Shown piece by piece: positions 17,627 through 21,162 of a stretch of DNA of 64,000 bases. The translations under genes were made by a program, and so were the position numbers. The stretch lies in the NCBI GenBank assembly GCA_963710375.1, contig CAVPZX010000002.1:448001-512000 (forward strand). The letters run 5' to 3'. The notes beneath the pieces were generated by a model. That model was not told the DNA's origin. It saw nothing but the letters and a program-made list of their open reading frames with translations, and did not search any database. Position 1 is the first letter of the stretch. Each line of letters begins with the position of its first letter. The stretch is from Nitrospirota bacterium. Its GTDB lineage: Bacteria; Nitrospirota; Thermodesulfovibrionia; Thermodesulfovibrionales; Dissulfurispiraceae.

Positions 17627-18994
17627 TTGTCTTTTGATGAGCGCATAAATATTACCACGGGTAATTTGTGGCTTTCCATATGGCAGCTTTCATGGCCTAT
17701 GCTGCTTATCATGATCTTTAACTTTTTAGTAGGGATGACCGATATTTACGTAGCCGGATTCATCGGCCCGGAGGTACAGGCGGTTGTCGGTTTCGTCAGC
17801 CAGCTATTCTTTCTGAATATTATCATTGCAAACGCCGTCAGCATAGCCACTATTGCCCTGCTCGCACGCTCCATAGGGGCAGGTGATTTTGACGGTGCGG
17901 TAAAAATAGCGCGTCAGTCGCTTATATTCGGTATTCTGGCTGCTTTGGCGATAATGATAGCCGGCCTTGCATTCCCCCGCGAGATCGTTGCTATTGCGGG
18001 GTTTCCAGAAAACATATGGAGCATTGCAGAACGCTTCATCAGGATTTTTGCCCTTTCGCTCGGGCCCAACTATATCCTCATTATTTCCAATGCCGTGTTT
18101 CGCGCAAGCGGAGAGGTCAAAAAAGTCCTGGTCACTATGTTCCTGGTAAGCGCCGTAAACATTATAGGAAATTTCGTGCTTGTCTTCGGTATCCCTCCGT
18201 TTCCAAAGATGGGATATATAGGCATCGCACTTTCTACAGCCCTCGCGGTAACCGCTGGGATGATTATAAACTTCATCCTGTTCGCCTTTAGCAGGTGGCG
18301 GGCCATCTATAAAGCACCGGCAGAAGTCTCGGGCGAGACTATCAAAAAAATAATCAGTCTGAGCTGGCCGGCCGCGCTTCTTCAGGCCGCATGGAATGCC
18401 GGGAGCATTTTACTATATAACATACTGGGAAGACTGGGCAGCATTAGCATCACCGCTCTTGCCGCTCTCACCAACGGTCTCAGAATAGAGGCAATCATTT
18501 ATCTACCCGCCTATGCCCTAAATATGGCTGCAGCAGTACTAGTGGGGCAGAACCTGGGCGCAAAAAACGCTGCCAGGGCGGAAGAAGTGGGATGGAAAAT
18601 AGTTTCATCAGGAATTGCTCTCATCAGTGTAATGGCAATCATTATCTTCATCTGGGCCGAAACCTTCGCATCAATAGTTACAAGCAACCCTTCAGTGCTT
18701 AAGGAAACCGTCAGATACCTGAGATTTAACATGGTATCTGAGCCCTTCATGGCATTGAGTTCCATTCTGGGAGGAGGCCTTCAGGGAGCTGGAGACACCA
18801 GGGGAACAATGCGTATAATTATCATTGCCATGTGGGTCATCAGACTTCCCCTAGCCTATCTGCTTGCCCTGGGTTTAGGCTTTGGAGCAAAGGGCGTCTG
18901 GACGGCGATGGTCATTTCGATGGTCATTCAGGGTATACTTATGGCACATAGATTCCGCCACGGACTATGGAAGGGAATAACTTTAGAACATTAA
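17627..18994 (+). CDS. MATE-family efflux transporter
   Basis: About 12 TM segments; LSWPM...D and VGQNLGAK, LQGAGDT motifs. Confidence 0.9.
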   Translation: MSFDERINITTGNLWLSIWQLSWPMLLIMIFNFLVGMTDIYVAGFIGPEVQAVVGFVSQLFFLNIIIANAVSIATIALLARSIGAGDFDGAVKIARQSLIFGILAALAIMIAGLAFPREIVAIAGFPENIWSIAERFIRIFALSLGPNYILIISNAVFRASGEVKKVLVTMFLVSAVNIIGNFVLVFGIPPFPKMGYIGIALSTALAVTAGMIINFILFAFSRWRAIYKAPAEVSGETIKKIISLSWPAALLQAAWNAGSILLYNILGRLGSISITALAALTNGLRIEAIIYLPAYALNMAAAVLVGQNLGAKNAARAEEVGWKIVSSGIALISVMAIIIFIWAETFASIVTSNPSVLKETVRYLRFNMVSEPFMALSSILGGGLQGAGDTRGTMRIIIIAMWVIRLPLAYLLALGLGFGAKGVWTAMVISMVIQGILMAHRFRHGLWKGITLEH

Positions 18995-19004
18995 TGGAGA
19001 GAAT

Positions 19005-20240
19005 ATGCTGAAACTGTTTAATACCATGGGGCAAAAGCTCGAACCGTTCACGTTGCGGCACAGCAAAAGAGTAACCATGTTCACTTGCGGCCCTTCGGTT
19101 TATCAGAAGTCGCATATCGGTAATTTCCGGACCTTTTTATTCGAGGACATCATTTTGCGGTATCTGGAGTATCTGGGCTATGCAGTGCAGAGGGGCATGA
19201 ATTTCACCGATGTCGAGGACAAGGCAATTGCTGAAGCCGGAGGGCAGAGGGCCGCACTTAAACAGCTCACCGGAAAGAACATAAAGATATTTATAAAGGA
19301 AATGGGACTCCTCTCCATAAAAATCCCAGATTACCTCCCCAGGGCGTCGGATAGCGTCGAGGAGGCTGTTGAAATAATAGAACAGCTTCTCAAACAACAT
19401 GCCGCATACTGGCACCAGGGGAGCGTTTATTTTGATCCGCTTTCATTCCCTGGTTTCGGTAAGCTTTACGGCCTCGACATGTCGCTATGGCCGAAGAAGA
19501 AAATACGTTTTCATAAGGACACCTATCCGGGCATTCAGTGGAACCTTGGAGATTTTATTCTTTGGCACGGCCATAAACAGGGTGAAGGCGTTTACTGGGA
19601 CACAAAAATCGGCAGGGGCAGACCGTCATGGAACATCCAGGACCCGAGCATGATCGTCAGGTATTTTCATGAAACGCTGTCTTTATACTGCGGCGGCATT
19701 GATAACCTCTACCGTCACCACGATTATACCCTGGCCATACTCGAATCATTAAGGCATTCTCCCAAGTATCGCTTCAGGCCCATGTCACGGTTCTGGATGC
19801 ATTGCCGGCATCTTTACGTCAACGGTCAGAAAATGTCGAAGAGCAAAGGCAACATCCATTACGTAGAAGACCTTCAGGCGTCGGGCTTTACTCCTGCTGA
19901 AATCCGTTTCTTTCTTATATACGGCCATTACCGCCAGACCCTTAATTACTCAGATAGCGCAATGCTCCTGACATCTGAAAAGCTCAGACACTTTAAAAGG
20001 ACCATCAATGTCCTTGAGAAGAAGGCTCACCCGCATCACCACACCGGCAGCCGCGCAGCACAGGCGATAAGAAAAAGCTTCGGGGAGCATATGGATAACG
20101 ACCTGGATGTCAAGAAGGCATTTGATGAAATTTACGATGCGGTTGTGCATACTGATATCTCCGGGACGGGACCAGCCGATGCCGCCGCAATAATACAAAC
20201 CCTGAAAGAAATTGACCAGGTGCTTCGGGTCATTTTTTAA
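19005..20240 (+). CDS. Cysteinyl-tRNA synthetase paralog (class I ligase, C-terminally short, atypical Zn site)
   Basis: CGPSVY..SHIGN, KMSKS, HYR and DALR-like helices; WNIQD replaces WHIEC; 411 aa. Confidence 0.85.
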   Translation: MLKLFNTMGQKLEPFTLRHSKRVTMFTCGPSVYQKSHIGNFRTFLFEDIILRYLEYLGYAVQRGMNFTDVEDKAIAEAGGQRAALKQLTGKNIKIFIKEMGLLSIKIPDYLPRASDSVEEAVEIIEQLLKQHAAYWHQGSVYFDPLSFPGFGKLYGLDMSLWPKKKIRFHKDTYPGIQWNLGDFILWHGHKQGEGVYWDTKIGRGRPSWNIQDPSMIVRYFHETLSLYCGGIDNLYRHHDYTLAILESLRHSPKYRFRPMSRFWMHCRHLYVNGQKMSKSKGNIHYVEDLQASGFTPAEIRFFLIYGHYRQTLNYSDSAMLLTSEKLRHFKRTINVLEKKAHPHHHTGSRAAQAIRKSFGEHMDNDLDVKKAFDEIYDAVVHTDISGTGPADAAAIIQTLKEIDQVLRVIF

Positions 20241-20420
20241 GGGCTCGCGAATAAATAACTTGTGCATTCAGGCGCTCAGATTTGGGTCAGATTTGGCTGA
20301 TCCGACTGAGCAAAACCGCAGGCGTAGCATAGCTACGTTGAGGATTTTGCGACTGAGGATCGGGCAAAGATGGCCTAAATCTGAGATGCATCAATGTTCA
20401 AGTTATTTATTCGCGAGCCC
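20241..20420. mobile_element. 180-bp palindromic MITE with 22-bp perfect TIR and TAA target duplication
   Basis: GGGCTCGCGAATAAATAACTTG ... CAAGTTATTTATTCGCGAGCCC with TAA on both sides. Confidence 0.85.
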
Positions 20421-20433
20421 TAATATTTCATGC

Positions 20434-21162
20434 CTATTGTTTCTTGCCTCCGAATACAGCAAAAGCACCGTTCTTAAAGTAACAGTCCACATCCACAAAT
20501 CCCGCTGATTCCAAAGCTCTCAACTGATTTCCAAGGGTATCTGGTTTGTTCATGCTTGAAGGGTCTTTATAACGCTTTATCGGGTCGTCAGGCACTTCAT
20601 CCTTAATATTATACCGGTCCATCATCCGGGTAAGCCAATCTTTCCAAATTGCAAAATACCATTGCTCAAGTTCTTCTGATGGAGGAAGTATGGCATCAAC
20701 ATCGACAAAATGACCTCCGGGCTTAAGCCATGACGCTATAAGGCGGAAGAGAGAAGCCTTTTCATCCATATCAAGGTGGTGAATCGCCATAGAAGAAACA
20801 ATGAAGTCATAAGTTTCCAGCGTGATCTTACCACCCAACAGGTCCTGGAAGGTTGCCTGAATGAAAGTTGTGTTCCGGTATCCCTTTAGTCTTTCCCGCG
20901 CTTGCCTAATCATGCCCTCACCGCCATCAAGCAGCGTTGCGGACACGTCATTATTGGTTTTGAGTAATTCCTCTGTCAGGGCACCATCTCCGGATCCCAG
21001 TTCCAGCAATTTAATATCCTGTACGCCGTGACGAAAATGCGAAACCAATGACGTAACAAACCAGAACATTTGCCTGCGGTCCATTACATAGATATCGGCT
21101 TTGTCCAGATAGTTCTGTGCAAATGAATTGTCTGCCCACGCCGATTTGTTGAAATCAGTCAT
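20434..21162 (-). CDS. Class I SAM-dependent methyltransferase
   Basis: LLELGSGDG and SSMAIHHL...LKPGG. Confidence 0.9.
   Translation of the reverse strand: MTDFNKSAWADNSFAQNYLDKADIYVMDRRQMFWFVTSLVSHFRHGVQDIKLLELGSGDGALTEELLKTNNDVSATLLDGGEGMIRQARERLKGYRNTTFIQATFQDLLGGKITLETYDFIVSSMAIHHLDMDEKASLFRLIASWLKPGGHFVDVDAILPPSEELEQWYFAIWKDWLTRMMDRYNIKDEVPDDPIKRYKDPSSMNKPDTLGNQLRALESAGFVDVDCYFKNGAFAVFGGKKQ

Follow-up and report, generated by a model that had tools for sequence, protein, structure and literature searches.

A cysteinyl-tRNA synthetase paralog with a rebuilt metal site and no anticodon domain, encoded behind a MATE transporter in Nitrospirota

The locus and the identity of the paralog

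A 64,000-nucleotide stretch of a Nitrospirota genome (assembly GCA_963710375.1, contig CAVPZX010000002.1, positions 448,001 to 512,000 of the forward strand; the window) encodes a paralog of cysteinyl-tRNA synthetase (CysRS) directly behind a MATE-family transporter. The transporter gene (17627..18994, + strand) specifies 455 residues with two PF01554 domains and scores 213.5 bits on TIGR00797 against a cut-off of 147.4. A 10-base spacer (18995..19004, + strand) contains the GGAGAG ribosome-binding site of the paralog ahead of its ATG. The paralog itself (19005..20240, + strand) is a CysRS-derived class I adenylating enzyme of 411 residues, built of a Rossmann core, a CP1 insertion with a rebuilt loop and a helical bundle, without the C-terminal anticodon domain. 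Its sequence carries HIGN at residues 37-40, GRPSWNIQDPSM at 205-216, YCGGIDNLYRHHDYT at 228-242 and KMSKS at 276-280. An earlier note made from the DNA letters had described this gene arrangement, the protein length, the intact HIGN and KMSKS motifs and the replacement of C209 by Asp and of E238 by Thr; open reading frames and an alignment to E. coli CysRS (PDB 1li5) confirm all of these.

Although the paralog matches the CysRS catalytic domain (PF01406, E 6e-69), it is not the cell's working CysRS, because it falls below the cut-off of the cysS profile TIGR00435 (301.9 vs 340 bits) while a canonical enzyme encoded elsewhere passes it. That enzyme, the second CysRS match in the source genome (98.8% complete), is a 710-residue CysE-CysRS fusion with canonical motifs, lies on another contig and scores 576 bits, which answers one check that the note had proposed. 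Two distant family members also score below the cysS cut-off (302 and 278 bits), and the paralog is far below that of the MshC profile TIGR03447 (181.8 vs 485.1 bits). Another proposed check, a tree with neighbourhoods, resolves the family as one conserved clade separate from canonical CysRS. Database labels for its members read cysteinyl-tRNA synthetase, class I tRNA ligase family protein or hypothetical. A single tRNA-Cys and a single tRNA-Sec occur in the source genome, both on contigs other than the paralog's.

The paralog is under purifying selection and strongly conserved, not decaying. Its ratio of nonsynonymous to synonymous substitution rates (dN/dS) is 0.13-0.25 against four close relatives, and catalytic residues are invariant over 44-100% identity. 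In a phylum sample of 251 genomes, 15 carry it (source genome included; E <= 3e-149). These 15 all belong to the order, and every one of them holds a second, canonical CysRS match. The gene occurs in 15 of the 78 genomes of the class; among named organisms, Nitrospirota of the Dissulfurispiraceae/Thermodesulfovibrionales are its closest relatives. The family as a whole is estimated at about 700 GTDB and 1300 metagenome stretches.

Two observations concern other CysRS genes. The canonical cysS of the source genome is fused behind the serine O-acetyltransferase CysE (835-2967 of locus L002, contig C4), and, judging by open frames of about 710 residues in many of the class genomes, this fusion seems to be common there. 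On plasmids, 630 records match the paralog at <60% identity, Klebsiella accounting for 503; the matches listed are annotated as canonical cysS and represent a plasmid-borne second CysRS unrelated to the paralog family.

The rebuilt active site

Conserved positions were read from an alignment of 171 family sequences (83 near, 88 distant) and 23 canonical CysRS, with the broken frames L198, L211 and L214 left out. Residue equivalence follows E. coli CysRS (1li5): D213 corresponds to C209 and T242 to E238, and the alignment stops at residue 391 of the 461 in the E. coli enzyme. Residues C28, G29, H37, G39, T68, D69, K73, W209 (E. coli W205), D233, H238, H239, H266 and K279 are invariant in the family and common to canonical enzymes. 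The amino-acid site C28-G29-P-S31 and the ATP motif H37-I-G-N40 (19086..19124, + strand) combine shared residues with S31 and N40, likewise invariant (171/171); N40 also occurs in 21 of the 23 canonical rows. In the KMSKS loop (19830..19844, + strand), K279 is present in 171/171 sequences and K276 in 161/171.

Eight substitutions are invariant across the family (171/171; E. coli numbering): T31S, D71E, H206N, E208Q, C209D, P233R, E236D and N237Y. The resulting S31, E71, N210, Q212, D213, R237 and Y241 are found in none of the 23 canonical sequences, and D240 in one. Most of these lie in a rebuilt metal and acceptor pocket (19629..19730, + strand), where W209 is retained, N210/Q212/D213 replace H206/E208/C209, and R237/H238/H239/D240/Y241 follow. 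A second rebuilt region, the CP1 loop W162-F184 (19488..19556, + strand), replaces the canonical G-A-R-V loop with a family signature in which W162, P163, G176, W179 and G182 are invariant (171/171 vs 0-2/23 canonical); the predicted model has low confidence at residues 165-182 of this loop. H206 and H224, present in 23/23 canonical CysRS, are lost. The rewiring described by the note therefore stands for H206N, E208Q, C209D, P233R and N237Y, whereas two of its elements fall outside: T242 because the E238 position is unconserved (T in 70, N in 57, S in 32 and V in 7 of 171), as is that of H224, and C-G-G-x-D-N in the second motif because canonical HIGN-type CysRS has it too.

Zinc in E. coli CysRS is bound by C28, C209, H234 and E238 (PMC7563103, in excerpt). 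The family keeps C28 and H234, has Asp for C209 in 171/171 sequences and T/N/S/V for E238; the most plausible role for the invariant D213 is that of a new metal ligand. In MshC, the α-amino group is held by G44, T46 and T83, and zinc by C43, C231 and H256 (PMC9736012, in excerpt). Since the family retains the equivalent α-amino set and two of these three zinc ligands, with D213 at the C231 position, the paralog likely still forms an aminoacyl-adenylate from an α-amino acid. The anticodon domain is lost throughout: canonical rows extend 55-69 residues beyond the paralog's end, whereas 165/171 family rows extend fewer than 10. The helical bundle is fully retained.

Whether the amino acid has changed, as the note had proposed, is not established by these positions. 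The exchange E238T is no sign of a new amino acid, because cysteine-using MshC has Ser there, and Gln at H224; only C209D, together with H206N and E208Q, argues for a change. Threonyl-tRNA synthetase (ThrRS) is zinc-using and a precedent for a serine-like substrate, and the harder ligand set of the paralog could favour serine-like residues. As donor, cysteine (or an analogue containing sulfur) and a different small residue appear about equally likely.

Relation to known CysRS offshoots

Among canonical CysRS (TIGR00435; PDB 1li5/1u0b, 8qhp, 3sp1), the paralog is nearest the HIGN type and has both the HIGH-like and KMSKS motifs. It differs from them by C209D, H206N, E208Q, P233R and N237Y, by loss of E238 and H224, by its CP1 and by always being a second copy. 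MshC, the L-cysteine:glucosaminyl-inositol (GlcN-Ins) ligase of mycothiol synthesis (TIGR03447; PDB 3c8z, 8hfm), matches it in fold, size (about 410 residues) and end point, as the note had proposed, and also lacks the anticodon domain; MshC even has Tyr at N237. However, MshC retains both zinc cysteines, C43 and C231 (PMC9736012), and H206, where the paralog has D213 and N210, and the MshC route needs an MshB-like gene that paralog carriers do not require. The paralog is probably an offshoot independent of MshC, because it scores lower on the MshC profile than on the canonical one.

CysRS* of Desulfobacterales is likewise a second CysRS with no anticodon domain and an altered CP1, found in anaerobic delta-proteobacterial hosts, and it charges a tRNA (PMC5389517, in excerpt). 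Its gene stands behind a selC* tRNA and selB*. No such tRNA was found near the paralog: searches for tRNA-Cys and tRNA-Sec detected none in 93 loci with ARAGORN, which could miss an 8/4 tRNA, and none in 29 loci with Rfam. The CP1 of CysRS* has PTVS for MSGA, whereas the paralog has the longer W162-F184 signature there and a changed zinc site as well. Further parallels are Glu-Q-RS (YadB) and EpmA/PoxA, which, like the paralog family, kept the catalytic domain, lost the anticodon domain and, in their case, use a non-standard acceptor (PMC9437257). CysRS* and MshC are the only CysRS paralogs named in the available part of that review, and no description of the present family or its reaction was found in the literature searched. 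The paralog resembles MshC and other truncated aminoacyl-tRNA synthetase (aaRS) paralogs; by the features tested, it belongs with none of canonical CysRS, MshC and CysRS*.

Linkage to the MATE transporter and other neighbours

The MATE protein scores below the cut-offs of the named subfamilies YeeO, SolL, WgkD, NorM, MepA and DinF; the nearest solved transporters are Aq128 and PF0708 (about E 1e-20). It is itself constrained (dN/dS 0.13-0.15). Of the 80 nearest GTDB loci, 79 of which had at least 500 bases upstream, 51 have a MATE from one subfamily (53-91% identity) ahead of the paralog and on its strand. The gap to the paralog, in the 50 of 51 loci with a start found, has a median of 38 bases and is within 250 bases in 48. 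Among the 78 class genomes, 13 have both genes, two the paralog only, three the MATE only and 60 neither, counts in which kin are not independent; the genes are adjacent in 12 of the 13. Across 48 loci, pairwise distances in the MATE rise with those in the paralog (Spearman 0.61, 0/999 permutations as high), a result that shared ancestry alone would also yield. Genes flanking the pair vary widely between loci, and no riboswitch or shared operator was found upstream. Pairing of the MATE with the paralog is tight in the Nitrospirota/Desulfobacterota branch.

Other transporters adjoin distant members. A recurring run of OsmC-hydrolase, HPF-cold-shock protein and CNNM/CorC transporter genes, with the paralog last, forms a second transporter partnership (L171, L172, L194, L203, L205, L208, L209 and others), and an ABC exporter pair directly after the paralog in several distant members (L138, L142, L143, L188) represents a third exporter type.

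The remaining neighbours differ by branch. Near the closer relatives are phosphomannomutase (10), thioredoxin 2 (9), NifU (7), superoxide dismutase (4) and rubrerythrin genes; near distant members are CNNM/CorC transporter (16), OsmC-hydrolase (11), HPF (10), DinB (8), hemerythrin (5), peroxiredoxin (4), ferritin (4) and DUF488 (3) genes. Redox genes occur at 16/80 near and 24/80 distant loci, where random windows of the source genome gave means of 1.9 and 1.3. This is a lead only, given that the categories were picked once the loci had been seen, the loci themselves supplied the queries, and they are related. In one distant member, the paralog is fused behind a DUF488 domain (538 residues; L145, 6107-7723), and free DUF488 genes adjoin members in L177 and L218. 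The source genome has two PIG-L deacetylase (PF02585) genes, and searches found no BshC or GshB match in it.

Proposed function and alternatives

The best explanation, with a probability of roughly 0.45, is that the paralog acts as a stand-alone, MshC-like two-step ligase used under stress. It would activate cysteine, or a small amino acid resembling it, with ATP at the rebuilt metal site, predicted to comprise Cys28, Asp213 and His238, and would then pass the aminoacyl group to a common small-molecule acceptor rather than to tRNA-Cys, as MshC does. The MATE, which is likely co-expressed, may move the product, or a compound under detoxification, and would possibly act as exporter in this branch. 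We infer that the protein is catalytic and binds metal at this site, which amino acid and acceptor it uses, and that it serves under stress. Both substrates would have to be common to any cell, because MATE and paralog are independent of each other in other lineages and no pathway partners accompany them. A more specific version is unlikely: in these strict anaerobes, an unknown amino-acid conjugate, serving as redox buffer or detoxification adduct, would replace glutathione, mycothiol and bacillithiol, made at the Cys/Asp/His site from what may be a non-cysteine residue and exported by the MATE in Nitrospirota and Syntrophales.

Several results weigh against the ligase proposal. No biosynthetic partner gene is conserved beside the paralog across the loci compared, so the undescribed small-molecule pathway envisaged in the earlier note shrinks to at most a one-enzyme reaction. 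Only 6 of 15 carriers have a PIG-L deacetylase of the MshB/BshB type above its cut-off (another has one below it), against 17 of 63 non-carriers, which makes a mycothiol-like amino-sugar acceptor unlikely. Redox genes are absent from 64/80 near and 56/80 distant loci. The MATE is missing from 29 of the 80 near loci; in nine of the 10 genomes behind selected loci, a search elsewhere in the genome found, for nine MATE-less loci, no MATE above 37% identity. At greater distance, none of 80 metagenome loci has it (these were ordered by similarity to a distant member rather than placed on the tree; 66 had 500 bases upstream), nor does any of 11 distant-branch genome loci. Conversely, similar MATEs occur in 21 of 251 genomes of a Syntrophales-centred sample, 20 of them without the paralog. 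Product export through the MATE, as the note had it, is therefore optional and not obligatory, even though the linkage that it rested on holds in the near branch. Finally, loss of the anticodon domain would be compatible with a tRNA substrate, as in CysRS* and Glu-Q-RS (PMC5389517, PMC9437257), and the rebuilt CP1 loop is basic (K/R-rich) and would suit nucleic acid; the tRNA independence claimed for the paralog is thus not established.

Action on tRNA through the acceptor stem is a doubtful alternative, though the likeliest of those considered, in which the paralog would charge tRNA-Cys as a stress back-up with a less oxidation-sensitive metal site, or would charge, modify or edit another tRNA, the MATE being only co-regulated. 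CysRS* cysteinylates its tRNA without the domain, and a domain-deleted canonical CysRS retained some activity (PMC5389517). The whole helical bundle and the basic CP1 loop fit this role, as do the HPF, RF-1-domain rescue factor and DinB genes near distant members, and no pathway genes would be required. On the other hand, the family has lost H206 and H224, which presumably act at the tRNA 3' end, no dedicated tRNA lies near the paralog in the loci scanned, and the MATE pairing is left unexplained. E. coli CysRS with the double change C28/209D also loses translation activity (PMC5660078, in excerpt). The same mutant, however, retains persulfide synthesis (PMC5660078), which bears on a further and improbable alternative: an enzyme without a second substrate, making cysteine persulfide by the side activity of CysRS that depends on pyridoxal phosphate, or alarmones of the diadenosine tetraphosphate (Ap4A) type from the adenylate, as LysU does. 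The redox-gene neighbours would suit this, and of the persulfide-synthesis lysines K73 and K269 are invariant and K266 is kept in 161/171. K76, whose loss cut persulfide synthesis (PMC5660078), is nevertheless Ala here and Lys in 24/171, although no more than 10 of the 23 canonical enzymes have Lys at this position either. An acceptor loop rebuilt and held invariant would be superfluous for both activities, as would R237 and Y241.

Aminoacylation of a protein after translation, as by EpmA/PoxA on EF-P, seems equally improbable. Truncated aaRS paralogs that modify a protein have precedent (PMC9437257), and the recurrence of thioredoxin, peroxiredoxin, OsmC and HPF genes near members, with the one DUF488 fusion, might point to a redox or ribosome-associated target under stress; but no single target gene is conserved alongside, and neighbours vary by lineage. 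The paralog is very unlikely to be a duplicate that is inactive or in decay, or a decoy that binds an inhibitor, with the MATE beside it in a chance cassette. Its patchy occurrence in the class and the frames broken in 3 of 80 metagenome loci would agree with this, whereas the low dN/dS, the estimated extent of the family and the invariance of its catalytic residues speak against it.

The aaRS offshoots worked out so far (MshC, Glu-Q-RS, EpmA and CysRS*) each revealed a new reaction. The present family is widespread in anaerobes and sharply defined by its invariant substitutions, including a natural Cys-to-Asp change at a cysteine-selecting zinc ligand. The amino acid accepted by this rebuilt pocket would bear on aaRS evolution and engineering, and the family could bring to light an overlooked thiol or stress chemistry in bacteria that reduce sulfate and sulfur.

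Other features of the locus

A class I methyltransferase of 242 residues (20434-21162) converges on the paralog, and the earlier note had left its membership undecided. It recurs at only 1 of 80 loci, as a 24-residue remnant, and was rejected as part of the system. The gene, next to purH, is missing in the relative loci L003 and L006 and reduced to 24 codons in L004, which points to either ongoing loss or a recent gain.

Between the two genes, an element of 182 bases resembling a miniature inverted-repeat transposable element (MITE), with 34-base terminal inverted repeats, occupies 20240-20421 and begins at the paralog's stop codon. The insertion is missing at this site in L003-L006, and the paralog's reading frame was not truncated by it. 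The element has 26 copies in the genome (at least 160 bases, 89% identity) and folds as a single hairpin (z -17).
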